Shown here in pieces: positions 963 to 56,263 of a stretch of 64,000 nt of DNA. Numbering within the stretch: position 1 is the stretch's first letter; each line of letters begins with the position of its first letter. The notes beneath the pieces are model-generated. The model was not told the origin of the DNA. It did not search any database and was given only the letters and a program-made list of their open reading frames with translations. The DNA is from Gammaproteobacteria bacterium. Lineage in GTDB: Bacteria > Pseudomonadota > Gammaproteobacteria > GCA-002705445 > GCA-002716945. A program made the position numbers and the translations under genes. The stretch spans positions 2,353 through 66,352 of the forward strand of contig JAYNVZ010000002.1 of NCBI GenBank assembly GCA_038101125.1, read 5' to 3'.

Positions 963-995
963 ACCTTATCTCTCCTTATATTTTTGGTATTATAA

Positions 996-1328: not shown

Positions 1329-1341
1329 AATTTACTCCTAT

Positions 1342-2420: not shown

Positions 2421-2432
2421 AATAACCTGCTG

Positions 2433-3512
2433 TTAAAATCTAATATAAGCAGATGAATTCAATGTTTTTCTTCCACCACGCCAGTTATCGATATGATGTT
2501 TAGTAAATGGCAACTCAGTCAATTCAAAGAATCTTGGCCATCCTATTCTTTCAATCCAATCATTTATACGTTCCCAATCCTTAGCATCTTCTTTGTAAAC
2601 TTTTAAGATCCTTTTTACTATAGCAGTCGCTTCTGGCCATCTAGGTGGATTATTAGGTATACCTGCAGCTACTAATTTTTGGAAAGTTGGTTTACTTCTT
2701 GCATTAGAATGGTTGCCACCTACCCAGATAGCTAATTTACTATGCTCTGGATCATTTATTTGCATTGGTGGACACGGAGGAAAACAAGCTCCACAGCAAA
2801 TACATTTCTTTTCATCTACTTCTAGTGAGGCCTTTCCATTAACCATTGCAGGTCTAATCGCTGCAACAGGACATCTAGCTACAACAGATGGTCTCTCACA
2901 TACGTTAGAAACTAGGTCATGATTAATTTTAGGTGGTTTGGTATGTTGTATATTAATTGCAATATCACCTTGACCACCACAGTTTATTTGACAACATGAT
3001 GTAGTCATGTGAACCCTGTTTGGCATCTCATTATTTTTAAATTCATCTATTAACTCATCCATCATTGCCTTTACAACACCAGATGCATCTGTTCCTGGGA
3101 TATCACAATGCAACCATCCTTGAGTATGAGATATCATTGCGACACTATTTTTAGTTCCACCAACAATGAAGCCTTCTTTTTCTAGTGCTTCAATTAATGG
3201 CTCAACTTTTTCTGAGTCTTTGACCATGTATTCAATGTTGCTTCTTATTGTGAATCTTACAAACCCATCTGCATATTTATCACCAATATCACAAAGTGTT
3301 CTTAGGGTAAATACATCTAAAATTCTCTGAGTTCCTGCTCTAATTGTCCAGATTTCATCACCACTCTCTGCCTTATGTCTTAATACTCCAGGCTTAGGGT
3401 GATCATGCCATTTCCATTGTCCAAAATTTTTTCGCATTGTTGGATGCATGTACTGAAATCCATCAGGAGCTCCAGTCTCTATAGGTGATCTTTGTTTTTT
3501 TTGTTCTGTCAT
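2433..3512 (-). CDS. dsrB: Dissimilatory sulfite reductase beta subunit
   Basis: 359 aa. It has sirohaem/FeS-binding Cys clusters and a ferredoxin-like insert (CPVAAIRP...CICCGAC). It follows dsrA. Confidence 0.9.
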   Translation of the reverse strand: MTEQKKQRSPIETGAPDGFQYMHPTMRKNFGQWKWHDHPKPGVLRHKAESGDEIWTIRAGTQRILDVFTLRTLCDIGDKYADGFVRFTIRSNIEYMVKDSEKVEPLIEALEKEGFIVGGTKNSVAMISHTQGWLHCDIPGTDASGVVKAMMDELIDEFKNNEMPNRVHMTTSCCQINCGGQGDIAINIQHTKPPKINHDLVSNVCERPSVVARCPVAAIRPAMVNGKASLEVDEKKCICCGACFPPCPPMQINDPEHSKLAIWVGGNHSNARSKPTFQKLVAAGIPNNPPRWPEATAIVKRILKVYKEDAKDWERINDWIERIGWPRFFELTELPFTKHHIDNWRGGRKTLNSSAYIRF

Positions 3513-3527
3513 AATTACTCTTCTCTT

Positions 3528-4781
3528 TTAAGCAGTGTCTTTCTTAGCGTCTGCACGTTCATACCATTTAACTGCTTCATCATCCCAATCATCTGTTCTT
3601 ACATAACTTGACTCTCTTGGGTTTGCAATCATATTTGGCTCAACTTCTACACCAATCCCTTCTAAGAAATTTACTAAACCAATTCTTTCGATCATCTCAC
3701 CGCATCTTTCATGTTCCAGCGCATTATCTGCCCAGAAATCAATCGTTTCCTCTGCAATTTCAACTAGCCTATCCCAGTCTTCTTCAGATTCTAGTTTCAT
3801 GAATGGAACTATTACCGTCCCCATTAAGTCGCCAATCTTAAGTGTTCTTTTGCCGCCAATAAGAATTGTTGCCCCTTTATCATCACCTGGATGTAAAGCT
3901 TTTGGCACCACGTTAAGACAATGCATACATTTTACACAATTCTGGTTATCGATTGTGACAGAATCATCGTCATTGAGAGATATTGCATTAGTTGGACAAC
4001 GTGTAACTATATTATCAATTACATATTTTCTACCCTTTAATCCAACATATGCTTTGAACTCTTCTTGATCTACTTTTATGTCATCTCTCCAAGTTCCTAT
4101 GACAGACATATCTGCTCTTTCTATAGAGTTCATGCAATCATTAGCACATCCTGATACTTTAAATTTGAATTTATATGGCAATGCAGGTCTATGCATATCG
4201 TCAATAAAATTATTTACTAATAATCTATGAGCTTTGTGTTCATTAACATTAGACATTTCGCATCTTCCAGCACCTACGCATGACATTGCTGTTCTCACGC
4301 ATGGACCAGCACCACCTAAATCCCACCCTTTTTCATTGATATCGTCGAAAAAGTGTTGCGTAGAATCGGTAGTTGACCCAATAAACATAATGTTGCCGGT
4401 TTGACCATGGAAAGTGACTAAACCAGAGCCATGTTTTTCCCATGAATCTGCTAGGTCTCGTAGTGATTGTGTAGTATAAAAATTACCTGCTGGAGGCTGA
4501 ACTCTTAAAGTATGGAATTCTTTTGACTTTGGAAATGCATCTCCAACTTCAGAAAATCTTGGAATGATACCGCCACCATATCCATATACACTTACTGTTC
4601 CACCTTTCCAGTATCCTTTTCTTGTTTCGTATGAATGTTCTAATTGACCTAATAAATCATTGGTCATTTCATTAATTCTTGTCTCTGGATGCGTATCTCT
4701 TAATCTTTTGATTCCACTAATGAAACTAGGCCATGGCCCGTTTTCTAGCTCATCTAACATAGGTGTATCGTGCTTTTTCAA
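3528..4781 (-). CDS. dsrA: Dissimilatory sulfite reductase alpha subunit
   Basis: 417 aa. It has DsrA-type Cys motifs (CVGAGRCE, ferredoxin domain CPTNAI...CVKCMHC). It is the first gene of the dsr operon, and dsrEFH downstream indicate the sulfur-oxidising type. Confidence 0.9.
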   Translation of the reverse strand: MKKHDTPMLDELENGPWPSFISGIKRLRDTHPETRINEMTNDLLGQLEHSYETRKGYWKGGTVSVYGYGGGIIPRFSEVGDAFPKSKEFHTLRVQPPAGNFYTTQSLRDLADSWEKHGSGLVTFHGQTGNIMFIGSTTDSTQHFFDDINEKGWDLGGAGPCVRTAMSCVGAGRCEMSNVNEHKAHRLLVNNFIDDMHRPALPYKFKFKVSGCANDCMNSIERADMSVIGTWRDDIKVDQEEFKAYVGLKGRKYVIDNIVTRCPTNAISLNDDDSVTIDNQNCVKCMHCLNVVPKALHPGDDKGATILIGGKRTLKIGDLMGTVIVPFMKLESEEDWDRLVEIAEETIDFWADNALEHERCGEMIERIGLVNFLEGIGVEVEPNMIANPRESSYVRTDDWDDEAVKWYERADAKKDTA

Positions 4782-4907
4782 TTATAACTCCCCAACTCTG
4801 ATATATATCTTTATTATATTATCATTATTTTCTAATATAAGTCTATGGCTAAACAATATAGCATTGATAATAAATGCTTTACAAGTAATAAATATGAATA
4901 AATTCTG

Positions 4908-5756
4908 ATGAATATACTCTTAAATACTAAAGAAGATTATAAACGCTGGAAAGATAAAAAACTAGAGTCATTTACTAGAAATATCGATCATCTAACAGTC
5001 CATATTTCTAATCCGAACAGTGTGAGCAAGCCTGAAAAAAATAAGGTAATTAGCCTTTTGAGAAGTAATAACCTAGCTTTTTTCAATATTGATAATATTA
5101 GTTATAAAGATAAATCATCCATCAAAAGATTTGCCTTTCAAATTGGACTAGGTGATTATGAATTAGATTCAAGATCGGATGATGATGGCCTCACAGAGAT
5201 AAAAGAACATAAGCATAACGATAAAATATCTGAGTATATTCCATACACTGCTAAAGAGCTAAATTGGCACACAGATGGCTACTATAATACTAAAGATAAT
5301 TCCATTTTATCATGGTTATTATTCTGTAAGACACAATCCGAAAAAGGCGGAGTTAACAAATATTTAGATCATGAAATCTCATATATTTTGTTTAACGATA
5401 TTAGTAATAAAATAAAAGATCTAATGTTAGAAAACACTTGCTGTATCCCAGAAAATCGAATGACTAAAAGGAAGGGGGTTCTTAATCCAGTTTATATGTT
5501 TAATGATGAGAAATTGCATATGAAGTTTAGTATGAGAAAAAAAAATATTATTTGGAATGATGTTAGTCTGAAAGCGATCAATATCCTAAAAAGTATTATA
5601 GAAGATTCATCTGAATATCATATAACAAAAAAATTTGCTGAAGGAGAAGGTGTAATAACAAATAATGTTATTCATAAGCGTACAGCATTTACAAATTCAG
5701 AAAATAAGAATAGGCTCTTATATAGATTAAGATCCAAAAGAAGAGTAATTAAGTGA
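4908..5756 (+). CDS. TauD/TfdA-family Fe(II)/2-oxoglutarate dioxygenase
   Basis: It has the WHTDG (HxD) motif. A distal GEGVITNNVIHKRT segment aligns with TauD GDLVMWDNRCLLHRAT (second His and Arg). The gene is divergent from dsrA. Confidence 0.6.
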   Translation: MNILLNTKEDYKRWKDKKLESFTRNIDHLTVHISNPNSVSKPEKNKVISLLRSNNLAFFNIDNISYKDKSSIKRFAFQIGLGDYELDSRSDDDGLTEIKEHKHNDKISEYIPYTAKELNWHTDGYYNTKDNSILSWLLFCKTQSEKGGVNKYLDHEISYILFNDISNKIKDLMLENTCCIPENRMTKRKGVLNPVYMFNDEKLHMKFSMRKKNIIWNDVSLKAINILKSIIEDSSEYHITKKFAEGEGVITNNVIHKRTAFTNSENKNRLLYRLRSKRRVIK

Positions 5757-5949: not shown

Positions 5950-6624
5950 ATGTGGGAAGAAGAAGAACAAGTTCAGCTCAATGATACATCTAAAATGATA
6001 GATGTAACTTTTAGAATAGATTGCAAAACATTACCCTATGATCATGCTTATGCTTTATCTAATGAAATAACAAAAAATATGCCCTGGCTCTTAGAGAATA
6101 ATTTAACTGGCATACATACGCTTCATGGACCTGAGTCTGGTAATGGCTGGGTAAGATCAGAAAAAGAAGAAATCTTTTTATCCAAAAGAACACGTTTAGT
6201 TCTTAGAATTCCAAGGATTGATATAGAAAAAGCTAAAGAGCTCGAGAATGTTTCTGTGAACGTATTGGGCAATACCATTAAAATTGGTAAATCTAACACT
6301 AAAGCTTTCCTTGTTGTCAGAGACTTAATTAGCAGGTTTGTGTTATGTGACGAGAATGAAACTGAAGAGGACTTTCTTTTAAGTGTAAAAAAAGAATTAT
6401 TTTCTCATGGAGTCATGATAAAAAAAGCAATATGTGGCAAAGAAAAATCTTTCACAATAAATGGTAAAAATAGATTTACTCGCAGCCTGATGATTGCCGA
6501 TCTAAGTAAAGAAAACTCTGTTTTACTCCAAGATACTGGTGTAGGCAGTGGCAGAATATTTGGATGTGGTATTTTTCTACCTCATAAATCAATTGATGCA
6601 GTTTCTGGTTTCAAAGAAGACTAG
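5950..6624 (+). CDS. Cas6-like RAMP-superfamily protein (Cmx6-like), orphan
   Basis: N-terminus MIDVTFRIDCKTLPYDHAYALSNEI resembles the Cas6/Cmx6 N-terminal signature. A C-proximal glycine-rich loop GVGSGRIFGCG matches the GhGxxxxxGhG RAMP motif. No CRISPR repeats are seen in the window. Confidence 0.4.
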   Translation: MWEEEEQVQLNDTSKMIDVTFRIDCKTLPYDHAYALSNEITKNMPWLLENNLTGIHTLHGPESGNGWVRSEKEEIFLSKRTRLVLRIPRIDIEKAKELENVSVNVLGNTIKIGKSNTKAFLVVRDLISRFVLCDENETEEDFLLSVKKELFSHGVMIKKAICGKEKSFTINGKNRFTRSLMIADLSKENSVLLQDTGVGSGRIFGCGIFLPHKSIDAVSGFKED

Positions 6625-6708: not shown

Positions 6709-7047
6709 ATGAAAGTTGAACTAAATGGTGTGCAAATTGAGACAACTGAGACTGGATTTCTAGTTAATCTTGAAGATTGGAATGAAGACATTGCTAAGGT
6801 AATTGCAACACAAGAGGAAATTGAACTAACTGACAGGCATTGGGATGTCATTAATTATTTAAGAGATGAATTTATCAATAATAAAGAGAATCAACCTAAT
6901 ACAAGAAATATGGTCAAAGATATCGGTAAAATTTGGGGTGAGAAAATTGATACTAAAACATTATTTGATTTATTCCCTGGCAATCCAAGCAAACAAGCTG
7001 GTAGAATAGGTGGTTTACCAGAAAGTAGGAGAAAAGGTGGATACTAA
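6709..7047 (+). CDS. DsrC/TusE-family paralog lacking both conserved C-terminal cysteines
   Basis: 112 aa, alignable along its length to the dsrC at 996-1328 (NLEDWNEDIAKVIA, WDVINYLRDEF, LFDLFPGNPSKQAG). It ends ...GLPESRRKGGY and has no Cys anywhere. Confidence 0.65.
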   Translation: MKVELNGVQIETTETGFLVNLEDWNEDIAKVIATQEEIELTDRHWDVINYLRDEFINNKENQPNTRNMVKDIGKIWGEKIDTKTLFDLFPGNPSKQAGRIGGLPESRRKGGY

Positions 7048-19693: not shown

Positions 19694-19948
19694 TTAATCC
19701 TTTAGTAAATCTTCTAGTTTGCCATCCATATCATGCTCAACTAAATCATCAAAACCTCCAACATGATAATCTCCGATGAATATCTGAGGGACTGATTGTC
19801 TTTTGGATTTTTCCATCATTATCTTTAGCTGTTCTTGATCCATATCAACCATAATATCTTCATATGCGATATCTCTTTTTTGGAAAAAATTTTTAGCTCT
19901 AACACAGTAAGGGCAGATTCTTGTGCTATATATTGTTACTTTTTTCAT
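19694..19948 (-). CDS. grxC: Glutaredoxin 3
   Basis: 84 aa with the CPYC active site and a GGxDD motif. Confidence 0.8.
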   Translation of the reverse strand: MKKVTIYSTRICPYCVRAKNFFQKRDIAYEDIMVDMDQEQLKIMMEKSKRQSVPQIFIGDYHVGGFDDLVEHDMDGKLEDLLKD

Positions 19949-29988: not shown

Positions 29989-30591
29989 TTATGCTTGATA
30001 AGCAAAAGGTCCTGACAGACCAACTCTATCTGCTGTTGTATTCCATGTTCTACCATGATCTGAATACTCTTGCTTACTGGTCATGTTTACATCAACTGGA
30101 AATCCAGGATTTATTGCAAGCGGATGATAATTACATTGTGCAACTTTGCCATCTCCACTTTCAACACCAGCCATATCCCAGCCACCTGCACCACTAACTT
30201 CTAAAGTTTGTTTTGTGCCATCTTTTTTAAAATTAATTGCTGCTCTTTTTACACCAATGACTTCACCTACTAAGCTAGCTATGACACCTAAGTGGCCGCC
30301 ATGTTTTCCACCCCATAGTTCTTCGATAGCAGTCGCTTGTTCATCTGTTGCATTTTCATCAATATACAATGCTAACTGGAATCCGCCATCAGTAAGATTT
30401 GGACCTGGCGCATGCAACCATGCTGAGACTTTTAACCCATCTAACTTAACATCACCTAGATTACCTTTACTGATATCCCATACAAGCATTGCCTCGCAAA
30501 AACCTTTTGTTGGGCTTTGTAGGTATAAACATGGGCACATTAGATCGCAATTACAGCTTTCTGCATAATCCCCTTTTAAACTCCAACTCAT
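29989..30591 (-). CDS. DUF1326-family protein (N-terminal CNCxxxCPC motif)
   Basis: 200 aa with a SCNCDLMCPC motif near the N-terminus. Its GC content is locally higher than in the flanking genes. Confidence 0.5.
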   Translation of the reverse strand: MSWSLKGDYAESCNCDLMCPCLYLQSPTKGFCEAMLVWDISKGNLGDVKLDGLKVSAWLHAPGPNLTDGGFQLALYIDENATDEQATAIEELWGGKHGGHLGVIASLVGEVIGVKRAAINFKKDGTKQTLEVSGAGGWDMAGVESGDGKVAQCNYHPLAINPGFPVDVNMTSKQEYSDHGRTWNTTADRVGLSGPFAYQA

Positions 30592-30755
30592 AATCTTCTC
30601 CCGTTAATTAACATATTAATCATCACATAATATCCATTAAAAATCTATTAAATGTAGAACTATCTATCTAAGAACATTAGAAAACTCTAATGTTTAAAAT
30701 TCAATTAATACTATGAAGAGAAATTAATTTTGCTACAGTAATAGATGGGGGAAAT

Positions 30756-32468
30756 ATGAAGAAAAGCTTTTTTAGCAGACATGCATCTGCGCTCAGTATT
30801 AATAAAGGTGTTTCAACAACTAAGAGAGATATTAAATGGTATGAAAAAAGCGTGCCTTGCAGATCAGCCTGTCCAGCAGATACGGATATACCCGGCTATT
30901 TAGAAGCAATTTATAATCATGATTATGAAAAAGCATACAAAATTAATTTAGAAGATAATGTTTTTCCAGGTATTCTTGGAAGAGTGTGTTCCCGACCTTG
31001 CGAGGATGCGTGCCGACATAGTGATGATGCAAATGGTGAATCAGTATCAATATGTTTTTCCAAAAGATCAGCGGAAACATTTCATCAATCCAAAAAATTT
31101 AAACTAAAAAACTACAGCCATAAAACTAATAAAAAAATATTAATAATTGGAGCAGGTGTAGCTGGTCTCACAGCAGCTAGAGAGTTGTCAAGATATGGCC
31201 ATGATGTAGAAATTTTTGAGAGACATAACTCTCCAGGTGGGATGCTAAATCAAGGGATTCCAATATTTAGATTACCCAGAGATGTTATCGACAGAGAAAT
31301 AGGGCAGATTTTAGAACATGGTATAAAAGTTCGCTATAATAAAAACATTAAATCTTATGATGAAATAGAAGAACTATCAAAAAAGTATCATGCAGTTGTA
31401 TTAGCGCTTGGTACATTAAAACCGAATAAAATTAATCAAGAATTTTCTAAATCTGAAGATGTTGAAGATGGATTAGATTTTTTACTTCGAGTAAATGAAT
31501 ATCAAGATAAATATGTAGGCAAGGATGTTGTTGTAATAGGTGGTGGATATACAAGTATGGATTGCGCAAGGACTGCACTCAGGTTAGGTGCAAAATCTGT
31601 AAGAACGTATTATAGACGAACAACAGATGATTTAGTCATCTTGCCTGGCGAACTAGATGAGCTTATAAATGAACATGGAAAAATGATCTTCAATGCCCAG
31701 CCACTTAATATCATTAAAAGAAATAATAAGTTAACAGGATTGGAATTAATTAACACTAAATTAATTAAACGCAATGGAGTTTATCAACTAAGAGATATTA
31801 AGGGAACAGAATTTAAAGTGAAGACTGATCATATTATTCTTGCGATTGGTCAAAAACAACATCTACCTTTATCTAAAAGTAAAAGGAAAAATATTTTTTC
31901 TGTTGGGGATTTTGCAACTGGGGCTTCTACGTTGATTAATGCTATTGCTCATTCAAAAGATATAGTCAAACAAATAGATAAGTTTTTAATGAAAAGAGAT
32001 CTGTTTAACTCTGAGATTAAAGTTACAAATATAAAGACAACTGGTAGAAATCTAAAATTGAACTATATTCCTATACATGAAATGCCCACAGTTAACATAA
32101 ATCAAAGAACATTTAAGCGCGAAGTCGAAAAAGGCTATCGAAAAGATCTATCTCATAATGAAGCTTCGAGATGTTATCTTTGTCATTATAAGTTTGAGAT
32201 TAATAATGATCTTTGCGTTCTGTGCGATGAGTGTCTGCTGGCTAAACCCATTAAAGATTGTATTGTTGAAGTCAGTGATGTCCAATCGCTCAAAGATGGA
32301 GATGTTTCATATAAGAGAATACGTCCTAAAGAAAGTATCGGTGTATATCATGGTAAATTACTAATCGATCATAAGAAATGTGTACGTTGTGGCGAATGTG
32401 AGAGAGTCTGTCCAACTAATGCAATATCAATTCAGAAAGTTGAAAAACAAGATTATGTTAAAGTCTAA
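30756..32468 (+). CDS. GltD-like NAD(P)H-dependent FAD/FeS oxidoreductase subunit with extra C-terminal 2x[4Fe-4S] ferredoxin domain
   Basis: N-terminal Cys cluster region, GAGVAGLTAARE dinucleotide fold and a second GGGYTSMDCA fold. C-terminal CVLCDEC... and CVRCGECERVCPTNAI. Confidence 0.7.
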   Translation: MKKSFFSRHASALSINKGVSTTKRDIKWYEKSVPCRSACPADTDIPGYLEAIYNHDYEKAYKINLEDNVFPGILGRVCSRPCEDACRHSDDANGESVSICFSKRSAETFHQSKKFKLKNYSHKTNKKILIIGAGVAGLTAARELSRYGHDVEIFERHNSPGGMLNQGIPIFRLPRDVIDREIGQILEHGIKVRYNKNIKSYDEIEELSKKYHAVVLALGTLKPNKINQEFSKSEDVEDGLDFLLRVNEYQDKYVGKDVVVIGGGYTSMDCARTALRLGAKSVRTYYRRTTDDLVILPGELDELINEHGKMIFNAQPLNIIKRNNKLTGLELINTKLIKRNGVYQLRDIKGTEFKVKTDHIILAIGQKQHLPLSKSKRKNIFSVGDFATGASTLINAIAHSKDIVKQIDKFLMKRDLFNSEIKVTNIKTTGRNLKLNYIPIHEMPTVNINQRTFKREVEKGYRKDLSHNEASRCYLCHYKFEINNDLCVLCDECLLAKPIKDCIVEVSDVQSLKDGDVSYKRIRPKESIGVYHGKLLIDHKKCVRCGECERVCPTNAISIQKVEKQDYVKV

Positions 32469-34533
32469 AATTAAAAAATATAAGGTGACCTGTCCGCATG
32501 ATTGTCCAGATACCTGCTCTCTGGAGGTAACAGTTGATACTAAAACTAAAAAAGCAATTAAGTTAATTGGTGATAAGACTCATCCTATAACCAAAGGCTT
32601 TCTTTGCAATAAAGTAAATCACTATCTTGACTTAGTTTATAACAAGAATCGTGTTTTGTACCCCCATGTAAGAGTAGGACCAAAAGGCAAAAAAGGAAAA
32701 CTCAAAAAAGTTTCTTGGGATTTTGCACTGAAAACAATTGCTAAAAAACTAAAAGCTATTGAAAAAAAATATGGCGCCGAAGCTATACAGCCATATAGCT
32801 ACTCTGGAACGCTAGGGATGCTAGGCTACTGGGGGATGTCTGAAAGATTTTGGAATAAGATGGGCGCGGCCAGGCTAGGCAGAACTATTTGTATAGCTGC
32901 CGCCTCAACAGCTGGTATCTATACCTATGGGGCAGCATGTGGGCCTGCAATTGATGAGGTCCCAAATAATGATTTGATAATACTATGGGGTACCAATATT
33001 GTTTCAACACATGTTCATATGGTGCCATTTGTTGAAGAAGCAAAAAAAAGAGGTGCAAAGATAATTTGTATTGATCCAAGAGAAACTAGAACAGCTGCTT
33101 TAAGTGACTGGCATATTCAACCCAAACCAGGAACTGATACAGCCTTAGCATTAGGTATGATGAATGAGATAGTTAAAAATAAAAAACATGATTTAGCTTT
33201 TTTAAAAAAACATACGACTGGATATAAGGAATTCCTAGATAAAATATTACCAAAGTATACCTTAGATAAAGTTTCAAGAATTACTGGTATACAAAAAGCA
33301 GACATTAAACAATTAGCTTTTGAATATGGTTCAACCAAGAAAACATATATACGTCCTAACTATGGATTAAACCGTCATCGTAATGGTGGCATGATGGTAA
33401 GATCAATTATGTTGCTTCCTGCGATAACAGGTGCTTGGAAGAATAAAAGCTCTGGGTGTTTTGTAGGGTCAATTGAGGAAATGTGGAACGTAGATTTAGG
33501 AAAGTTACAAAGACCAGATCTTCTAGATAATAAAAATCCAAGATCCATAAATATGATACAAATAGGAAATGCCTTAAATGATAAAAAATTGGATCCTCCA
33601 ATTAAATCATTATTTGTTTGGAATTCAGATATAGCTAATTGTGCTCCGGATAGCATCAGTGTTCGCAGAGGTTTAAAGCGAAAAGATTTGTTTACGGTTG
33701 TTCACGAAACTTTTTGGACAGATAGCTGTGATTATGCTGATATTGTTTTGCCAGCAGATACTCAACTAGAGCATATGGATCTTCATGCGCCTTACGGACA
33801 TTATTATTTTAGTCTTACACAGCCAGCGATAAAACCACTAGGAGAAAGTAAATCTAATCAAGATTTGTTTAGGGATCTTGCAAAATATATGGGCTATAAA
33901 GATAAATGTTTTAAAGAAAGTGATGAAAGTATGATTAAGAATATGATTGACCCAAAACATAATCCTCTGTTTAAAGGCGTTACTTTTGAAAAACTTAAAA
34001 AAAATGGCTGGGTTAAGGGTAATGTTGAAAATAAAAAAAGAGATTATATAAAAAAAGGTTGGCCAACTAAAGATGGTAAGATTCAAATCTATTCAAAAGA
34101 TACTGAAAAGATTGGATTAGGTGCCTACCCAGAACATATCGAAGAATTCGCTGACAAAGCATTAAGAAAAAAATATCCAATTCAGATTTTAAGTCCTGCC
34201 ACACATCAATTTATTGGTAACTCTTTTGTTCCCGTCGAAAGATTACGAAATATGGCATCAAGACCTACTATTGAAATGAGTAGTAAAGATGCAAGTAAAA
34301 GAAAAATAAAAGATGGAGACTTATGTAAAATTTATAATGATATTGGAGAGACTTATGCTCATGCCGTAATAATAGATTCTATGCTTGAAGGTGTTGCCTC
34401 AACTCAAAAACAATACAAAGGCTCTCTGATCAAAAATGGTGTAAACGTCAATGCTCTAAACACTCAAGATGTAACTGATATGGGTGATGGGCCTATCTTC
34501 TACACCGTTTTAGCTCAGATTAAGAAAGTTTAA
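32455..34533 (+). CDS. Molybdopterin (bis-MGD) oxidoreductase catalytic subunit, uncharacterised MopB subfamily (N-terminal CPHDCPDTC cluster motif)
   Basis: About 690 aa from internal ATG 32455, which gives a 14-nt overlap with the upstream gene instead of 89 nt. The KVTCPHDCPDTCSLEV FeS motif and MopB-type domain order end in a C-terminal beta-barrel. Confidence 0.7.
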   Translation: MLKSKIKKYKVTCPHDCPDTCSLEVTVDTKTKKAIKLIGDKTHPITKGFLCNKVNHYLDLVYNKNRVLYPHVRVGPKGKKGKLKKVSWDFALKTIAKKLKAIEKKYGAEAIQPYSYSGTLGMLGYWGMSERFWNKMGAARLGRTICIAAASTAGIYTYGAACGPAIDEVPNNDLIILWGTNIVSTHVHMVPFVEEAKKRGAKIICIDPRETRTAALSDWHIQPKPGTDTALALGMMNEIVKNKKHDLAFLKKHTTGYKEFLDKILPKYTLDKVSRITGIQKADIKQLAFEYGSTKKTYIRPNYGLNRHRNGGMMVRSIMLLPAITGAWKNKSSGCFVGSIEEMWNVDLGKLQRPDLLDNKNPRSINMIQIGNALNDKKLDPPIKSLFVWNSDIANCAPDSISVRRGLKRKDLFTVVHETFWTDSCDYADIVLPADTQLEHMDLHAPYGHYYFSLTQPAIKPLGESKSNQDLFRDLAKYMGYKDKCFKESDESMIKNMIDPKHNPLFKGVTFEKLKKNGWVKGNVENKKRDYIKKGWPTKDGKIQIYSKDTEKIGLGAYPEHIEEFADKALRKKYPIQILSPATHQFIGNSFVPVERLRNMASRPTIEMSSKDASKRKIKDGDLCKIYNDIGETYAHAVIIDSMLEGVASTQKQYKGSLIKNGVNVNALNTQDVTDMGDGPIFYTVLAQIKKV

Positions 34534-44361: not shown

Positions 44362-45774
44362 ATGAGTGTCGAGGATGTACTAAAAATAGTAAAGGAGAAA
44401 GAGGTTAAGTTTATTGACTACCGCTTTACTAATACAAATGGGAAAGAACAGCATGTGACTGTTACTGCCAATGAAGATGGGATTAAAACAGATTTTGCTG
44501 AAGGCAAAATGTTTGATGGTTCATCTATAGCTGGATGGAAAGATATTAATGAATCGGACATGATATTAATGCCTGACCCAAGCACAGCAGTAATGGATCC
44601 ATTTTTCGATGAACCAACTCTGATAGTATCATGTGATGTTATTGAACCAGCAGATGGTAAACCATACGAAAAAGATCCGCGATCGATTGCTAAAAAAGCT
44701 GAAGCGTATCTAAAAGAAACAGGAATAGCTGATCAAGCATTCTTTGGTCCCGAAAATGAATTTTTTGTATTTGATGATGTAAAGTTTGAAGATAAGTTAG
44801 GAAGTTCATTCTTTTCTGTAGATTCTTCAGAAGCTTGTTACAACAGTGGGAAATCTTATGAGGAAGGAAATATGGGGCATAGACCTCTAGTTAAAGGCGG
44901 TTACTTCCCTGTCCCACCAGTAGATGCATTGCAAGATTGTAGGTCTGCAATGGTAACAACATGTCAAGAAATGGGTGTCCCATGTGAAGTACATCATCAT
45001 GAGGTTGCAACAGGTGGACAATGTGAGATTGGAACTGTCTTTAATACACTAGTCTCCAAAGCAGATGAAGTGCAAAAGTATAAATATGCTGTTATGAATG
45101 TGGCACATGCATATGGAAAAACAGCTACATTTATGCCGAAACCACTAGTTGGAGACAATGGAACTGGTATGCATGTTCATATGTCTCTTTCAAAAGATGG
45201 GAAAAATATTTTTGCAGGAGACAAATATGGAAATATGTCAGAAGAAGCACTGCATTATATTGGTGGAATAATAAAGCATGCTAGAGCATTAAATGCCTTT
45301 ACAAATGCTTCAACGAATAGCTATAAAAGGTTAATACCTGGTTTCGAGGCACCTGTTATCTTAACTTATTCAGCTCGAAATAGGTCCGCTGCTATCAGGA
45401 TTCCTTATGTGATGAGCGATAAAGCTAGACGTATAGAAGTAAGATTTCCTGATTCTACAGCAAACCCATATCTAGCATTTAGTGCTCTGATGATGGCTGG
45501 CCTTGATGGGATAAAAAATAAGATTAATCCTGGTGAAGCTATGGATCAAGACTTATTTGAACTGACAACTGAAGAAGAAAAAATGCTTCCAACTGTTGCC
45601 CCTGGTTTAGATGTAGCTCTTGAGGCGTTAGATAAAGATAGGGACTTTCTAAAAGCTGGTGGCGTATTCACCGATAAGATGATTAATTCTTATATTGCTC
45701 TTAAATACGAGGAAGTACAACGTCTCAGACAATCAACACATCCTTGTGAGTTTGAAATGTACTACAGCTTATAA
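44362..45774 (+). CDS. glnA: Glutamine synthetase type I
   Basis: 470 aa. GS-I signature regions are present (DGSSIAGW, the NxYxRL region, and an adenylylation-loop Tyr near NPYLAF). Confidence 0.95.
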
Positions 45775-45782
45775 CATAGTAA

Positions 45783-45804
45783 CTGCCCTCTGAAAGGAGG
45801 GCAG
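45783..45804 (+). other. hairpin (ctgccctc-tgaaag-gagggcag) between glnA and ntrB; weak terminator/attenuator
   Basis: Perfect 8-bp GC-rich stem. It is followed by an A/T-rich tract but no clean T-run, consistent with partial read-through into ntrBC. Confidence 0.4.
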
Positions 45805-45818
45805 TAAATAAAATAATT

Positions 45819-46898
45819 ATGAGTATAAATATAAACAAAAGAAATATTAAAGAAATAAACGTTAATTATGATGTTTTAGATAATTTACGAACAGCGATTT
45901 TAATCTTTGACGTAAATTTTAATTATATTTATACAAATACATCTGCAATTGACTTACTTGGATCATCTTCAACCATGAAAGATATAAAAAAGCTTCAATG
46001 CAAGAATGTTAGCCTGACAACTTATTTAAAAAAAGTAAAAGATAAATTTCAATCAGTTGTGTTGAGGGATCTTAAGTTTAAGAATTTTGATCGTTTAGAA
46101 AGAATAGTTGATTGTAATATATCAAGCTATAATTCTGAAAATGATCAGTATATTTTGATGGAGATGAATGAAACAGGAAGATTATACAATATATCGCTTG
46201 ATCAAAACTTAATAGACCAGCAGAAAGCTACAAGAGAAATGGTTAAAGGTCTATCTCATGAAATTAAGAATCCGCTGGGCGGTATAATGGGAGCAGCCCA
46301 GTTGTTAGATAAAACTCTCACAGATGAGTCTCAAGCAAAATTTACTAAAATAATTAAGAAAGAATCAGAACGATTACTAAAATTAATCAATGCAATGGCA
46401 TCTCCTTTCCCTAAGTCTGATAAAGAAATTATAAACATCCATGAAGTCACCGAACATGTCATAGAACTATTTAAATATGATGCCGATAATGTAGATGTAA
46501 ATTTCATCAAAGATTATGATCCAAGTATTCCTCAGCTTACCCTTGATAGGCATCAAATTATCCAATCATTAATTAACATACTAAGAAATGCGATCCAAGC
46601 AATCAATAAGAATGGCAATATAGTAATAAAAACAAGACCGATATTTAAATATACAATTGGTGATATAAAACATGATCTTGTTGTAAAAATTGATGTTATT
46701 GATAATGGAATTGGGATACCTGAAGATAAATTGAAAGAGATATTTTACCCTATGGTTACCACAAAAAATGAAGGAATGGGTTTAGGGCTAACTATTGCAC
46801 AATCAATAATCATTGAAAACAAAGGCATAATTGAGTGCAAGAGCAAAAATAAAGAAACTGTATTTTCAATTATTCTTCCATGGAGCGACAATGAATAA
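45819..46898 (+). CDS. glnL: Nitrogen regulation sensor histidine kinase NtrB
   Basis: H-box HEIKNPLGGI, and N, G1 and G2 boxes. It sits between glnA and ntrC. Confidence 0.8.
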   Translation: MSININKRNIKEINVNYDVLDNLRTAILIFDVNFNYIYTNTSAIDLLGSSSTMKDIKKLQCKNVSLTTYLKKVKDKFQSVVLRDLKFKNFDRLERIVDCNISSYNSENDQYILMEMNETGRLYNISLDQNLIDQQKATREMVKGLSHEIKNPLGGIMGAAQLLDKTLTDESQAKFTKIIKKESERLLKLINAMASPFPKSDKEIINIHEVTEHVIELFKYDADNVDVNFIKDYDPSIPQLTLDRHQIIQSLINILRNAIQAINKNGNIVIKTRPIFKYTIGDIKHDLVVKIDVIDNGIGIPEDKLKEIFYPMVTTKNEGMGLGLTIAQSIIIENKGIIECKSKNKETVFSIILPWSDNE

Positions 46899-48285
46899 AT
46901 ATAAGCTTTGGGTTGTTGATGACGAGGAAAGCATTAGGACTATATGTAGAAGTGCCTTGGAAGATGCTTTTGTAATTGAAACTTTCCCAAATGGATCAGA
47001 AGCTCTTCTAGCATTAAATTCTGACAAACCTGATCTCATCATTACTGATATTAAAATGCCTGGTATATCAGGCCTGGAGCTATTGCAAAAAGTATCAGAA
47101 AGATACCCGGAGTTACCTACTATTGTAATTACAGCGCACTCTGATATAGATAATGCCTTGTCGGCTTATAAAGGAGGTGCCTTTGAATATCTCCCAAAAC
47201 CTTTTGATGTTGATACTATAAAAGCATTGGCTATGAAAGCGGTAAAAAATGCTGAAAATATCGAGAATGTTTTAGAGAATTCTACAATTAAAAAACCATC
47301 AAAAATAGTAGGTCAGGCAGTATCCTTGCAAAATGTTTTCAGGGCAATAGGAAAAATATCAAACTCAGATATTACGGTATTAATAAGAGGAGAGTCAGGC
47401 ACAGGCAAAGAGTTAATAGCTCAAGCTGTTCATGATAATAGTCTAAGAAAGGACAAGCCCTTCGTAGCAATTAATGTTGCGGCTATACCACATGAACTAT
47501 TAGAGTCAGAACTCTTTGGTCATGAAAAGGGTGCCTTTACTGGAGCACAAGCACAGCGGACTGGTAGATTTGAACAAGCACTTGGTGGAACCTTATTTTT
47601 AGATGAAATAGGCGATATGCATCCTGAACTGCAAACTAGGCTGCTGAGGGTTTTGTCTAGTCAAGAATTCTATAGGGTTGGTGGACAACAACCTATAAAA
47701 TCGGATGTTAGAATAATAGCCGCAACGAATCAATCAATAGAAGAATTAATAAAGACATCAAAGTTTAGAGAAGATCTGTATCATAGATTGAATGTTTTTA
47801 AACTTGAATTACCACCCTTAAGAAAGAGGAAAGAAGACATACCTTCTCTGATTTCACACTTTTTAAACACAGCTGCTATAGAATTAAATACTGAACAAAA
47901 AACAATTAACAAAAAGACTATGGCTTTTTTAGAGTCTTATGACTGGCCTGGTAATATTAGACAGCTTGAAAACATCTGTAGATATTTAACAGTGATGTCA
48001 GCATCATCAACTATAAGCATGGATGACTTACCTCAAGACATATTTAGTGACAAAGGTGTTGACGAAAATCAAAAATCGCATGATGTAAAATGGCAAGCTA
48101 GTTTAGAAAATTTTATAAGATCAGAAATTATATCAGATAAGAATATTCTCAAAAAAGTAAATAGTGAGATCGAGAAGATACTAATAGATGAGTCTTTAAG
48201 AGCATCTAATGGAATAAAAATTGAAGCTGCTAAGTTACTTGGCTGGGGCAGAAATACTCTGGCACGTAAAGCTAAAAATACTTAG
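46891..48285 (+). CDS. glnG: Sigma-54-dependent response regulator NtrC
   Basis: Receiver domain (DDE...D), an AAA+ sigma-54 activator domain with GESGTGKE and GAFTGA, and a C-terminal Fis-type HTH. ATG 46891 overlaps the ntrB stop by 8 nt. Confidence 0.9.
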   Translation: MNKYKLWVVDDEESIRTICRSALEDAFVIETFPNGSEALLALNSDKPDLIITDIKMPGISGLELLQKVSERYPELPTIVITAHSDIDNALSAYKGGAFEYLPKPFDVDTIKALAMKAVKNAENIENVLENSTIKKPSKIVGQAVSLQNVFRAIGKISNSDITVLIRGESGTGKELIAQAVHDNSLRKDKPFVAINVAAIPHELLESELFGHEKGAFTGAQAQRTGRFEQALGGTLFLDEIGDMHPELQTRLLRVLSSQEFYRVGGQQPIKSDVRIIAATNQSIEELIKTSKFREDLYHRLNVFKLELPPLRKRKEDIPSLISHFLNTAAIELNTEQKTINKKTMAFLESYDWPGNIRQLENICRYLTVMSASSTISMDDLPQDIFSDKGVDENQKSHDVKWQASLENFIRSEIISDKNILKKVNSEIEKILIDESLRASNGIKIEAAKLLGWGRNTLARKAKNT

Positions 48286-49286
48286 TTATATAGTCCAAGT
48301 AAAATTTTTCTAGGCTCTATATGATTATATAATATGTCATAAGCAGATTTTATGATCTTGCTATCACTATAAATCACTTTATTTTTGAATAATGTCTCAG
48401 TTGACAAATATCCTTCAACTGTACCAATTTTTGAAAGAAGCTTTTTAATGTTACAGCCACTAGCTAACTTCAATCCTAGTTGACGATTTCTTGAAGTATT
48501 ATAAAAACATGTAAGTTCAAGGTCACCTAAGCATGCTGGACTAGTAAGTGTTTTTTTCATATCACTATCTGAGACCTCATAACCATGACTGGTAGCCATG
48601 ATTAATTTAGAGATTCTATATACCTCCTGTTGTGAAATTGAAATCAATTCATGTACATATTCATCAGGAAACTCATTTGCTGTTAATGAACCAGCTAATA
48701 TTGCAGAAATGTTTTTTAGGACCCCTGAAACTTCAACACCTATAAGATCATGAGTTGGGAGAAGAGTAAAATAATCTGTATCCATGGCATTAACAAATAC
48801 TTCAGTTAAAAGATCATTAGTAGATGCTATGCTAACTTTGATATTTTTTTTGTTAACCAAATCCATTGCAAAACTAGGTCCTGAAATAATGCATTTTTCT
48901 ATTTTATCTACCAGCAGTTCATCTATAACCTGATGAAATAAATAACCTGATGAATGATCTAAACCTTTTGTTAACCATGTGAGAGATTTTGATTTTTTAA
49001 AATAATTTAAATTGTCTTTGATAATATTTAGAAACCCGGAACTTGATGTGGCTATGATATTGATAGTTTCAGGATCATTGCTGATTTCACTAACTCTGTT
49101 AAGGTTAAAAAAAGATATATTCTTACCAAATTTAATATCTAGATTTTTATGAATTTTATTGGTCTTATAAAAATCTACTTTATCAATATCTCTCAAATAT
49201 ACTTCTACTAAATTATTGTGTATTGACAGATGATTGGCTACAGCTAATCCCCACTCGCCTGCTCCAAATATTCTAAACAAAGCCAT
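48282..49286 (-). CDS. gpsA: NAD(P)H-dependent glycerol-3-phosphate dehydrogenase
   Basis: N-terminal GAGEWG Rossmann fold, 334 aa. It is downstream of secB as in the E. coli yibN-grxC-secB-gpsA cluster. Confidence 0.85.
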   Translation of the reverse strand: MALFRIFGAGEWGLAVANHLSIHNNLVEVYLRDIDKVDFYKTNKIHKNLDIKFGKNISFFNLNRVSEISNDPETINIIATSSSGFLNIIKDNLNYFKKSKSLTWLTKGLDHSSGYLFHQVIDELLVDKIEKCIISGPSFAMDLVNKKNIKVSIASTNDLLTEVFVNAMDTDYFTLLPTHDLIGVEVSGVLKNISAILAGSLTANEFPDEYVHELISISQQEVYRISKLIMATSHGYEVSDSDMKKTLTSPACLGDLELTCFYNTSRNRQLGLKLASGCNIKKLLSKIGTVEGYLSTETLFKNKVIYSDSKIIKSAYDILYNHIEPRKILLGLYN

Positions 49287-49724
49287 TTATTGTTTTGTTT
49301 TTTTTGAGAGCTCTTGTTGATAAAGAGCATTAAAATCTATAGGCGCAATAAATATGGGAGGGAATCCAGCTTTTTGAATTAGAGATGAAATGGTTTCTCT
49401 TGCATATGGGAAAAGTACTTCGGGGCATCTAATATTTAAAAATCCGTCTTTTAATTCATCATCAGCACCATCAATTATAAACAATCCTGCTTGCTTGAGT
49501 TCAACCATGTAAATGACAGTATTATCAGTTTCAGCTTTTACAGTTATTTCTAAAGTTATATCATAGGAAGTTTCATTTATTTCTGTAATAGTTGTATTTA
49601 GATTGAATGCCACCTTAGGTGTCGATTTAATGTTATCGAATATTGAAGGTGATTCTGGAGATTCCAGTGATAGATCCTTCGTGAATATTCTTTTAACAAA
49701 AAATTTAATTTCTTTTGCTTCCAT
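49287..49724 (-). CDS. secB: Protein-export chaperone SecB
   Basis: 145 aa. The IRCPEVLFPYARETISSLIQKAGFPP block matches SecB CPNILFPYARECITSMV. Confidence 0.85.
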   Translation of the reverse strand: MEAKEIKFFVKRIFTKDLSLESPESPSIFDNIKSTPKVAFNLNTTITEINETSYDITLEITVKAETDNTVIYMVELKQAGLFIIDGADDELKDGFLNIRCPEVLFPYARETISSLIQKAGFPPIFIAPIDFNALYQQELSKKTKQ

Positions 49725-49725
49725 T

Positions 49726-50133
49726 TTATTTTTCTCCCGATAAAGGCATGTTATTTTCTACCCAAGAATTAATTCCGCCTTCTAAATAAAAAACTTCTTG
49801 CACACCTTTGCCAGAGAAGGCTTTTGCGGCCTTTTGGGCATCTGCATCTGATGCAGCATAGGTCACCAAGGTAATCTCATTCTTAGCCTTGTATGACTCA
49901 ATATCATCAAATGAAATATTTTTTGCAGATACAATATGACCCTTTGAATATTCATCATTATCTCTTAGATCAAACAAAGCAATCTTTGTATTATTTAATA
50001 GCTGCGTGAGCTTATCATGATTAATTGGCTTTACTTTTCCAAATAGTAGCTTTGATTCTAAACTAATTATTAAGAATAATAATATTACTAGGGCTATAAA
50101 TAAAATTATATTGTCTGCAATAAATTCTAGCAA
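49726..50133 (-). CDS. Membrane-anchored rhodanese-homology-domain protein (YibN-like), cysteine-free
   Basis: N-terminal TM then a rhodanese fold. The position of the catalytic Cys loop reads VTYAASDAD, and the protein contains no Cys at all. Confidence 0.6.
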   Translation of the reverse strand: MLEFIADNIILFIALVILLFLIISLESKLLFGKVKPINHDKLTQLLNNTKIALFDLRDNDEYSKGHIVSAKNISFDDIESYKAKNEITLVTYAASDADAQKAAKAFSGKGVQEVFYLEGGINSWVENNMPLSGEK

Positions 50134-50146
50134 TTTTCTACTCTTT

Positions 50147-50494
50147 TTATTTTGGGTGCGAACAGAATACTTCGCGCATCATTTCAATTAATTTTAATGT
50201 TTTAATATCACTTACCTTATAGAATACTTTATTAGCTGATTTCCTTGCAGATAAAATTCCCTTGTCTCTAAGTATTGCTAGGTGCTGAGATATGTTACTT
50301 TGCGAAGTTCCTACATTATCAACGATATCTTGTACGCTAAATTCATCTTCTCCTAATTTACACAAGATCATTAAGCGTAATGGATGAGACATTGCCTTCA
50401 AGGATCTTGAAGCTGTCTCTACATCATCTTGAACTTGTTGTTCTAAATGCGACAGGTTATCATTAGTATTATTTTCTAGATTTTCAGTTTCCAT
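50147..50494 (-). CDS. ArsR/SmtB-family transcriptional regulator of the BigR/SqrR (persulfide-sensing) type
   Basis: 115 aa winged-HTH protein (HPLRLMILCKLGEDEFSVQDIVDNVGTSQSNISQHLAILRD). It has only two Cys, at positions 45 and 111, the same 66-residue spacing as SqrR C41/C107 and BigR C42/C108. Confidence 0.65.
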   Translation of the reverse strand: METENLENNTNDNLSHLEQQVQDDVETASRSLKAMSHPLRLMILCKLGEDEFSVQDIVDNVGTSQSNISQHLAILRDKGILSARKSANKVFYKVSDIKTLKLIEMMREVFCSHPK

Positions 50495-50592
50495 AGTTGG
50501 TATTTATATTTATTAATATATACCTATATTAGACAAAACTAATAAGATAATAAAGGAATAAAATGGTATTATTAACTTAATATAAATATTAT

Positions 50593-51786
50593 ATGAACAT
50601 TCATTTAAAAAAAGTCCAATTTAGCCTAATTATCATAATATTGATAAGTAATATCGGCTTGCCAAATAATAATCTAAATTCATCAGAGAGAGTCCCTGCT
50701 GAAAATATTGAACAGTTTGTGGATGTCTTCAACAGAATTAAGGAACAATATGTGGATGATGTAGATGATGAAACACTATTCAAGGCTGCAATAAAAGGAA
50801 TGGTTTCTGGCTTAGATCCACATTCATCTTTTCTTACGAATGATGACTTCAATGAACTCAAGATTGGAACAACTGGTAAATTTGGAGGACTAGGTATAGA
50901 AATAACCACAGAAGATAGTTTCGTTAAAGTTATCACGCCTATAGATGACACCCCTGCTAAAAAAGCTGGCATTGAAGCTGGAGACATAATTATAAAAGTC
51001 GATGACAAATCCTTAAAAGACATGGATATTGGAGAAGCTGTTAAACTTATGAGAGGTGAGCCGGGTACAAATGTTCAAGTAACAATTCTAAGAAAAAAAG
51101 TTAGTAAACCTATAGTTATTGACCTTGTGAGACAAATCATTGTATCGAAAGGGATTAAGACAAAGATATTTAATGAGGATATTGCATATCTTAGACTTTC
51201 TAGCTTCCAAGCAAATTCTACGAATGATTTGAAAAGCGCCCTTTATTCACTTAAAAAAAATACTGATAAAGAACTTGCTGCTATTATTTTAGATCTAAGA
51301 AATAACCCTGGAGGTGTTCTAGGTTCAGCTGTAGGAATTACAGACTTGTTTTTAAAAGAGGGAAAGATTGTTTATACAAAAGGAAGAACCCTTAATTCTA
51401 AACTAGAATATAAAGCTACTGCTCAAGATATTTCAAGTGGTTTGCCATTAATAGTAATGATAAACGAAGGTTCTGCTTCGGCATCAGAAATTGTAGCAGG
51501 CGCATTACAAGATCACAAACGAGCTAAAATTGTTGGAACTAAATCTTATGGGAAAGCATCTGTTCAAACTATACAAGAGTTATCAGATGGTTCTGCTTTA
51601 AAATTAACAACTGCTAGATACTATACGCCATTTGGCAGGGATATTCATACTCAGGGTATAGAACCTGATATAGAAATAGAAAGGGAGACTGACAAAGATG
51701 TAAAACTCCCAGAGCCATATGATAAGGATAATCAATTATTTGAGGCTATCAAAATAGCTGCTAATATGAAAGCTGCTGCACTATAG
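50593..51786 (+). CDS. ctpA: Carboxyl-terminal processing protease (S41, PDZ)
   Basis: Signal peptide, PDZ domain (GIEAGDIIIKVDD), and an S41 catalytic region with the Ser/Lys dyad (GSASASEIVAGALQD...KSYGKAS). Confidence 0.85.
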   Translation: MNIHLKKVQFSLIIIILISNIGLPNNNLNSSERVPAENIEQFVDVFNRIKEQYVDDVDDETLFKAAIKGMVSGLDPHSSFLTNDDFNELKIGTTGKFGGLGIEITTEDSFVKVITPIDDTPAKKAGIEAGDIIIKVDDKSLKDMDIGEAVKLMRGEPGTNVQVTILRKKVSKPIVIDLVRQIIVSKGIKTKIFNEDIAYLRLSSFQANSTNDLKSALYSLKKNTDKELAAIILDLRNNPGGVLGSAVGITDLFLKEGKIVYTKGRTLNSKLEYKATAQDISSGLPLIVMINEGSASASEIVAGALQDHKRAKIVGTKSYGKASVQTIQELSDGSALKLTTARYYTPFGRDIHTQGIEPDIEIERETDKDVKLPEPYDKDNQLFEAIKIAANMKAAAL

Positions 51787-55689: not shown

Positions 55690-56079
55690 TTAATCCTTGA
55701 TATTAAATTTGTCCCATCCATTATTTTTTTTAAACTCGTCTAATTCTTGATCATATTTAACAAATTCTTTATAGGCAGGATCGTTATGTGAATCTGGATT
55801 ATCACGATTAATTGAAAAGTGTGCAGCGCTTCGCTTTTTACATATCTGGGTATATGCATTCTTACCAAGAGCATCTAAACTAACATAAAACTCTTCACAT
55901 TGTTCCAGAGCACCTTTGCCAACGATACTTCTATCCTTGACAGTTAATCTTCTAAAGCTTCCTGTGAGCTCTTTAACCTGACTTAATGACCATGAGTCCC
56001 CAAGTTGATTTTTAAGATCTCTCTCTTTTCTGAGTTGATTATCCCAGTCGATAACTCTTTTTGAGCTGATTTTATTCAA
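55690..56079 (-). CDS. hypothetical protein (129 aa), TTG start, preceded by coupled 25-codon leader ORF
   Basis: The ORF runs from TTG at 56079. A hydrophobic 25-aa mini-ORF (56072-56149) with a perfect SD overlaps its start by 8 nt. Confidence 0.3.
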   Translation of the reverse strand: MNKISSKRVIDWDNQLRKERDLKNQLGDSWSLSQVKELTGSFRRLTVKDRSIVGKGALEQCEEFYVSLDALGKNAYTQICKKRSAAHFSINRDNPDSHNDPAYKEFVKYDQELDEFKKNNGWDKFNIKD

Positions 56080-56263
56080 TTTTATTTTTCCTTAAAAGCA
56101 CAACAAATAACCAAATTAAGAATAAAAATACAATAATAGATAGTATCATAAATATCCTCCTTATTTCAGTATGACCCTAATCAACTTTTTTACAAGATTG
56201 ATTTTGAGAAAATAATGATAATAAATAATCACTATTTCGCTTTAATACTAACAGATTAATTGG

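Follow-up and report, generated by a model that had tools for sequence, protein, structure and literature searches.

A two-cysteine ArsR-family regulator ahead of yibN-secB-gpsA as a candidate sulfane-sulfur sensor in sulfur-oxidizing Gammaproteobacteria

Intracellular substrate sensing in sulfur-oxidizing bacteria is poorly understood (PMC10451225), and one locus in a 64-kb stretch of gammaproteobacterial DNA (contig JAYNVZ010000002.1; hereafter the window, meaning the whole stretch analyzed) raises the question of how it might occur. There, a gene for an ArsR-like protein, publicly annotated as "metalloregulator ArsR/SmtB family," heads a cluster encoding a YibN-type rhodanese-like protein, SecB, and GpsA in a genome that also carries dsr genes. 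What might this regulator sense, and which genes might it control? We consider it somewhat better than an even bet that the protein is an autoregulated, sulfane-sulfur-responsive ArsR repressor of the arsR-yibN-like-secB-gpsA unit, acting like its characterized relatives.

The cysteine pair and the family of the regulator

The sequence-only reading, an earlier account of this DNA made from its letters, had counted exactly two cysteines in the 115-residue regulator, C45 and C111, and the translation holds exactly these. When the protein was compared by phmmer with all PDB sequences, BigR was the top match (3pqj, 2.7e-19), followed by HlyU, SqrR (6o8k, 5e-15), YgaV (3cuo, 1.1e-14), and NolR. C45 aligned without gaps to the α2 cysteine, and C111 to the C-terminal cysteine, of BigR, SqrR, YgaV, and HlyU, with MILCKL around C45 facing MLVCTL, MIMCYL, LILCML, and QILCML in this set and VFCS around C111 facing IFCA, QFCS, VYC, and LYCQ. 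The spacing of 66 residues is identical, and the earlier likening of it to SqrR and BigR survives the alignment, which places both cysteines on the sensing positions.

An AlphaFold2 model of the regulator (pLDDT 84) has helices at residues 5-35, 38-46, 54-61, 65-77, and 97-110 and strands at 81-86 and 89-94, in the α1-α2-α3-α4-β1-β2-α5 order of the ArsR/SmtB winged-helix fold, and the sequence matches Pfam PF01022 (HTH_5) at 1.9e-12, above the cutoff. In the model, C45 falls within helix 38-46 (α2) and C111 directly after helix 97-110 (α5), in agreement with the placement first proposed and with C41/C107 of SqrR. The best solved structures found by Foldseek were HlyU, NolR, BigR, YgaV, and SqrR, with TM-scores of 0.8-0.9 to structures of the family and HlyU best of all.

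The persulfide-sensing ArsR cluster (cluster 4 of a sequence similarity network) is defined by the α2/α5 cysteine pair and contains all known persulfide sensors, and its characterized members react with sulfane-sulfur donors to give a tetrasulfide within the protomer (PMC10509353; PMC12423496). Placement of the window protein in this two-cysteine clade, whose characterized members all sense sulfane sulfur, is supported by its sequence and predicted fold, and 116 of 120 close homologues keep the pair, as do most representatives of clusters at 50% identity. Persulfide sensing, repression, and control of the operon by this regulator are what we infer by analogy with those members.

Candidate operators and a proposed mechanism

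The 98-nucleotide (nt) intergenic region shared by arsR and the divergent ctp gene (50495-50592) had been proposed as the place to look for an inverted repeat, and there a perfect dyad, TATTAG-N6-CTAATA, occupies 50527-50544, directly after the −10-like TATTAT of a promoter-like sequence. The dyad arms are invariant and the spacer varies (TTTTGT, TTTCGG, TTTCAT, ACATAT) across 11 pelagic loci and locus L027, the only one of the wider family in which this dyad is present. Judged by its sequence and position, TATTAG-N6-CTAATA is likely the operator.

The operator of SqrR from Rhodobacter capsulatus, ATTC-N8-GAAT, shares a 4-N8-4 geometry with ATTA-N8-TAAT of the window. The regulator resembles SqrR and the BigR proteins of Xylella and Agrobacterium in fold, cysteine positions, and spacing, but their recognition helices (RQAAVSQQL and GQPTLSQQL) differ from its own SQSNISQHL, and no sqr, pdo/blh, or tauE-type genes adjoin it. 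The recognition helix of Vibrio HlyU, SQSALSQHL, is nearly identical to that of the window protein, and the HlyU operator hlyO, which has been used in experiments and contains ATTA-ATTCAGAC-TAAA, has the same 4-N8-4 layout as the window dyad (PMC10509353). HlyU has a demonstrated persulfide-specific tetrasulfide switch; in contrast to the regulator as read here, it activates virulence genes by counter-silencing, has no linkage to yibN-secB-gpsA, and belongs to an organism that is not a sulfur oxidizer.

The window has exactly two copies of the dyad core, ATTAG-N6-CTAAT, where 0.21 are expected, and none of 100 shuffles reached two. The second copy precedes a gene pair encoding a GltD/DsrL-like flavoprotein and a molybdopterin oxidoreductase (Table 1), which is conserved in pelagic relatives; the molybdopterin oxidoreductase falls below every NCBIfam cutoff, the best being Fdh-alpha at 276 bits against 666. 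At this second site, metagenomic relatives with as little as about 62% identity to the flavoprotein still keep ATTAG-N6-CT(A/T)AT as one of the few conserved islands upstream of the gene, and all 19 exact matches to the core in 135 fetched loci are intergenic. A two-mismatch version upstream of dsrA (4820-4837) is at chance level and was discounted as evidence.

A third exact ATTAG-N6-CTAAT was seen in two of the closest relatives, L002 and L003 (156-171), just past a carotenoid oxygenase (BCD) gene; a very short open reading frame (ORF) for a hydrophobic product and an acetyl-CoA synthetase gene lie downstream of it, and the segment is missing in L001. On account of the carotenoid oxygenase gene, these three relatives were considered as non-sulfur-oxidizing, SAR86-like cells, an idea that we rejected because the matching BAC MED13K09, a member of the window's pelagic clade, has both proteorhodopsin and a dsr operon (PMC1175822).

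In the wider family a different element recurs. About 55 of 76 loci, some of them in GC-rich genomes, have the box GnnTATTATTGTAT(T/A)A ahead of arsR, and it is essentially unique within each 8-kb locus. The window version of this family box (TATTATTGTATTAG), TATTATCTTATTAG, agrees with it at 12 of 14 positions and is made up of the TATTAT hexamer and the left dyad arm. The pelagic dyad and the family box could not be reduced to one operator model, and a scan of the window with the family box gave chance-level matches. An exact copy of the family core TATTATTGTAT stands at 56122 (−) of the window, about 45 nt upstream of a 129-residue ORF (55690-56079) without a Pfam match, and is probably a coincidence, as about 0.4 copies are expected by a rough estimate.

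We propose that the regulator would work as a homodimer, a winged-helix repressor belonging to the two-cysteine (SqrR/BigR/YgaV/HlyU) branch of ArsR proteins. Its reduced form would most likely bind TATTAG-N6-CTAATA, which closely follows the −10-like hexamer of the arsR promoter, and so hold down the compact arsR-yibN-like-secB-gpsA unit. A rise in cytoplasmic sulfane sulfur, as expected during Dsr-based sulfur oxidation, would then link Cys45 and Cys111 by a tri- or tetrasulfide bridge, and the bridged dimer would leave the DNA, allowing derepression of the unit. The second copy of the dyad suggests that the divergent DUF1326 and flavoprotein-molybdoenzyme locus may be controlled as well. 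Successive genes of the unit are separated by 13, 1, and 0 nt, and co-transcription of arsR with the yibN-like gene, secB, and gpsA is likely in the window because the first gap is so short and no terminator-like site is predicted across 48200-50700.

Conservation of the locus and the rhodanese-like partner

To place the locus among its relatives, genomes (one per species) were scanned with an alignment of ArsR homologues; the 80 loci considered are the best ArsR matches of at least 596, and their neighboring genes were identified by tblastn with the window proteins. The order arsR-rhodanese-(grxC)-secB-gpsA is present in 77 of the 80, and two of the three exceptions are contig ends. Nearly all of the loci belong to sulfur-oxidizing Gammaproteobacteria, including Allochromatium, Chromatium, Thiocapsa, Thiodictyon, Sedimenticola, Thiodiazotropha, Parabeggiatoa, Thiothrix, Cocleimonas, tubeworm symbionts, and metagenome-assembled genomes of Ectothiorhodospiraceae. 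That the regulator gene heads a yibN-secB-gpsA cluster, as the sequence-only reading had it, is plain in the window, where secB and gpsA directly follow the rhodanese-like gene. The same reading placed grxC correctly, at 19694, but its description of that gene as having moved was overstated, since grxC stands between the genes for the rhodanese and SecB in just 19 of the related loci.

Among the 65 genomes with all four proteins, the ArsR core averages 0.85 in pairwise identity, SecB and GpsA 0.53 each, and the rhodanese 0.43; the figure for the regulator is inflated by the choice of loci as best ArsR matches. Despite this selection bias, the regulator evolves far more slowly than its housekeeping neighbors in these genomes. 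A search of an incomplete literature library, short of most subscription journals, turned up no account of the subfamily, of the dyad, or of the fixed position before yibN-(grxC)-secB-gpsA in sulfur oxidizers.

The partner encoded next to the regulator has a hydrophobic N-terminal helix (residues 8-25), taken as a transmembrane anchor, a lysine-rich linker, and a single cytoplasmic Pfam Rhodanese domain (40-126), which together with its place upstream of (grxC)-secB-gpsA make it a YibN-type membrane protein; it can be aligned end to end with Escherichia coli YibN at 29% identity, and the gene order is the same as in E. coli. In place of a catalytic rhodanese loop, which begins with cysteine and has the form C-X5-R/S, it carries the acidic loop Y-A-A-S-D-A-D-A. 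Alignment with 6mxv and GlpE sets Ala93, following Tyr92, on their catalytic cysteine, and no cysteine occurs anywhere in the protein, just as the sequence-only reading had described. The further claim that it cannot be a sulfurtransferase holds for the canonical cysteine-persulfide mechanism, which the lack of any cysteine in the translated sequence excludes. We consider that the protein probably keeps a noncatalytic role, by analogy with E. coli YibN, whose interaction with the YidC insertase is reported for E. coli only (PMC11997395).

Neighboring sulfur-handling genes (sqr, pdo, rhodanese, or transporter genes) are one mark of the persulfide-sensing ArsR clade. The rhodanese gene adjoins arsR in 73 of the 80 loci, and outside the pelagic clade all 69 scored proteins carry the cysteine, within C-R-S-G-x-x-S. 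In the window, 10 related loci, and all 98 close metagenomic homologues, the position is instead occupied by Ala, Gly, Ser, or Asp, and in the group closest to the window protein the loop is conserved as acidic Y-A-x-(S/T)-D-S-D-A. Because the other 69 loci keep the motif, the loss is, by sequence comparison, a derived trait confined to the window's pelagic clade. The notion that a cysteine-free YibN is exceptional was rejected as phrased: E. coli YibN also lacks the canonical cysteine (PMC12282094), and the ancestral state in sulfur oxidizers is the active-type motif seen in those 69 loci.

Two smaller observations concern the same gene. Most of the cysteine-containing YibN-like rhodaneses of sulfur oxidizers (L012-L087) have a second conserved cysteine about 11 residues past the catalytic one (C-R-S-G-x-x-S-x-x-A-C), and to judge from this motif the two could form a resolving pair. 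In the window, a strong sigma-70-like match, TTGCTA-17-TATAAT (10 of 12 positions; 50105-50133, −), begins at the TTG with which the rhodanese gene starts and is either a chance match, the DNA being AT-rich, or a promoter for secB-gpsA within the unit.

Both the kind of regulator and its pairing with rhodaneses are known, from ygaVP and from rhd targets (PMC12423496). In E. coli YgaV-YgaP, as here, a two-cysteine ArsR regulator with both cysteines aligned lies directly upstream of a membrane-anchored, single-domain rhodanese; YgaP, however, has a catalytic cysteine and a C-terminal anchor, whereas the window partner has an N-terminal helix and no cysteine, and ygaVP lies outside the secB-gpsA cluster that the window pair precedes. 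E. coli YibN (yibN-grxC-secB-gpsA) shares the cluster position, the N-terminal helix with a cytoplasmic rhodanese domain, and the absence of the canonical cysteine (Asp in its place; PMC12282094) but differs in a cysteine at the far end of the loop and in having no ArsR gene upstream. SoxR and sHdrR of Hyphomicrobium denitrificans and Paracoccus, compared here by description, are likewise autoregulating two-cysteine ArsR repressors that couple sulfane sulfur to sulfur-oxidation genes (PMC10451225; PMC12423496); they are alphaproteobacterial and lie within sox or shdr clusters, whereas the window subfamily is gammaproteobacterial and lies in a housekeeping cluster.

Competing explanations, significance, and surroundings of the locus

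Several observations weigh against an autoregulated, sulfane-sulfur-responsive repressor of the four-gene unit. The regulator scores 84.1 bits against a cutoff of 155 in the BigR equivalog model (NCBIfam NF040642) and is therefore not BigR proper; with 38% identity to BigR and 34% to SqrR, the earlier label of a BigR/SqrR-type sensor stands for clade, cysteine positions, and fold and fails for orthology. On this comparison it is an uncharacterized member of the known persulfide-sensing ArsR clade and represents a separate, very conserved subfamily, a conservation to which the bias in the choice of loci described above applies. The full 18-bp dyad is not improbable by itself at 33% GC (0.67 expected with at most one mismatch), and relaxed versions of it occur in the window at chance level, without enrichment. 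The family box GnnTATTATTGTAT is nonpalindromic and always found in one orientation, and part of it may therefore be the −10 element itself. In other lineages, the arsR-rhodanese gap is mostly 60-600 nt (median 137) with promoter-like elements of its own, so control of secB-gpsA may be limited to the window's clade or absent. A search for the box in those gaps found promoter-like elements alone, and there the regulator may act on its own gene and on distant targets alone.

Two rival explanations concern the signal. A classic ArsR/SmtB metal or metalloid sensor would fit the public name of the protein and the generic NCBIfam HTH_metalloreg subfamily, whose cutoff is reached (78.9 bits against 55), and the ligand sets of such sensors had been named beforehand as the finding that would overturn persulfide sensing. 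The sets are absent. With only two cysteines, 66 residues apart, a CXC or α3N site is impossible; helix 97-110 (α5) contains no histidine, the histidines being solely at 16, 37, 71, and 113, and of the D-x-H...H-x-x-H/E α5 site the regulator has the aspartate alone. Since, in addition, the metal sensors CzrA, SmtB, CadC, and NmtR match with phmmer scores four to fourteen orders of magnitude worse than those of the persulfide sensors, metal sensing was rejected and is in our view extremely improbable. A general thiol-oxidation sensor, freed from DNA by a simple disulfide formed under peroxide, disulfide stress, or electrophiles, seems to us decidedly unlikely. The computed results discriminate between no oxidants, and the cysteine pair of HlyU was originally ascribed to oxidative stress (PMC10509353), but all biochemically tested members of the cysteine-pair cluster react with persulfides and are unreactive toward H2O2 and disulfides (PMC10509353; PMC12423496), and the subfamily is concentrated in sulfur oxidizers.

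The remaining two concern what the regulator does at the DNA. It might sense sulfane sulfur and yet serve as an activator or anti-silencer like HlyU, or as a global regulator with its main targets elsewhere, in which case the adjacency to yibN-secB-gpsA would be synteny without regulatory meaning. HlyU comes first among the structural matches and has the recognition helix in common, very high conservation suits a regulator of many targets, the rhodanese-secB-gpsA genes have their own promoter-like region without a box in most lineages, and a second conserved dyad lies 20 kb away; against this stand the 13-nt gap without a terminator in the window and the position of the dyad directly downstream of a −10-like hexamer, which is typical of a repressor. 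We hold such a role to be unlikely. It is also doubtful, in our estimation, that the AT-rich elements are promoter elements or the sites of another factor, the ArsR protein binding elsewhere or nowhere nearby. The fixed orientation of the family box, its overlap with the −10-like hexamer, and the marginal statistics of the dyad in AT-rich DNA would fit this explanation, but conserved arms with variable spacers occur at two unrelated promoters, the exact matches are all intergenic, and the layout resembles hlyO.

We therefore retain sulfane-sulfur-responsive autorepression as the preferred reading, with the qualification that the main role of the regulator probably reaches beyond the adjoining genes, given its strong conservation, the second conserved dyad, and the fact that its cysteines outlasted the disabling of the neighboring rhodanese. 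A far broader proposal is that this ultra-conserved two-cysteine ArsR protein would be the long-sought general cytoplasmic sulfane-sulfur sensor of sulfur-oxidizing Gammaproteobacteria (Chromatiaceae, Sedimenticolaceae, Thiotrichales, Beggiatoaceae, symbionts, and pelagic Dsr-carrying clades). Through this sensor, the flux of sulfur oxidation would be coupled to the biogenesis of membrane proteins and lipids (by way of YibN-YidC, SecB, and GpsA) and also to redox enzymes encoded farther away, among them the flavoprotein and the molybdoenzyme, and the sensor would stay essential even where its ancestral rhodanese and glutaredoxin partners are disabled or have moved. We offer this as a speculation that is more probably wrong than right, and by a good deal.

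Characterized sensors of this kind come from Alphaproteobacteria, enterics, and pathogens. The present gene, labeled generically as a metalloregulator, occupies the same place in purple sulfur bacteria, Beggiatoa, Thiothrix, Sedimenticola, invertebrate symbionts, and the abundant pelagic clades that carry dsr genes, with identity of about 85% throughout, and this shared layout makes it a good candidate for sulfur sensing in gammaproteobacterial sulfur oxidizers. A concrete candidate operator and cultured relatives (Allochromatium, Thiothrix, Sedimenticola) provide a directly testable entry point, and the pelagic clade is a natural experiment in which the sensor cysteines stayed under selection after the neighboring rhodanese lost its catalytic cysteine. 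Should the protein prove to sense persulfide in the ordinary way, with autoregulation and few target genes, a useful re-annotation would be all that is gained.

The features of the window to which these arguments refer are collected in Table 1. HTH_5/ArsR, Rhodanese, SecB, and GpsA domains were confirmed by Pfam, and likewise by NCBIfam, in the four-gene unit; an Rfam search of the window, whose GC content is 32-34%, gave no match.

Table 1. Positions of the genes and candidate regulatory elements discussed in the text
Feature	Position	Strand	Remarks
arsR-like ORF	50147-50494	−	115 residues; ArsR/SmtB-fold regulator, candidate sulfane-sulfur sensor
YibN-type rhodanese-like ORF	49726-50133	−	135 residues; TTG start
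secB	49287-49724	−	Pfam/NCBIfam
gpsA	48282-49286	−	Pfam/NCBIfam GpsA domains
Perfect dyad TATTAG-N6-CTAATA	50527-50544		Candidate operator, ~33-50 nt upstream of arsR ATG
Promoter-like TTAATA-17-TATTAT	50547-50575	−	Consensus match
ctp, S41 C-terminal processing peptidase	50593-51786	+	Divergent from arsR; conserved neighbor
Dyad core ATTAG-N6-CTAAT, second copy	30676-30691		DUF1326/GltD-like intergenic region; candidate second operator
DUF1326 gene	29989-30591	−	Divergent to flavoprotein/molybdoenzyme pair
GltD/DsrL-like FAD/Fe-S oxidoreductase	30756-32468	+	Candidate regulon member
Cytoplasmic molybdopterin oxidoreductase	32380-34533	+	Overlaps flavoprotein gene; candidate regulon member
grxC, glutaredoxin 3	19694-19948	−	CPYC; unlinked here; 107 bits against cutoff of 90
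dsrA, dsrB, dsrE, dsrF, dsrC, dsrM-like	225-4781	−	Oxidative-type Dsr context

The sequence-only reading had taken the host for a sulfur oxidizer, and the gene content of the window agrees: because dsrA and dsrB exceed their NCBIfam equivalog cutoffs and are accompanied by dsrE, dsrF, dsrC, and a dsrM-like gene, the host is by this evidence a Dsr-type sulfur oxidizer. No ORF of at least 110 residues was listed for dsrH in the dsr region. Next to the dsr genes, a 224-residue ORF (5950-6624, +) matching Pfam Cas6 (PF09559, 9.9e-53) lies between the cluster and a second TusE/DsrC-like gene (6709-7047); a CRISPR array or other cas genes were not seen in the ORF lists of the window. A gene for a TauD/TfdA-family dioxygenase (4908-5756, +) is divergent from dsrA, with which it shares the intergenic region 4782-4907. 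At the other end of the four-gene unit, glnA-ntrB-ntrC (44362-48285) is convergent with gpsA, an arrangement that is kept in the pelagic relatives L001-L006.

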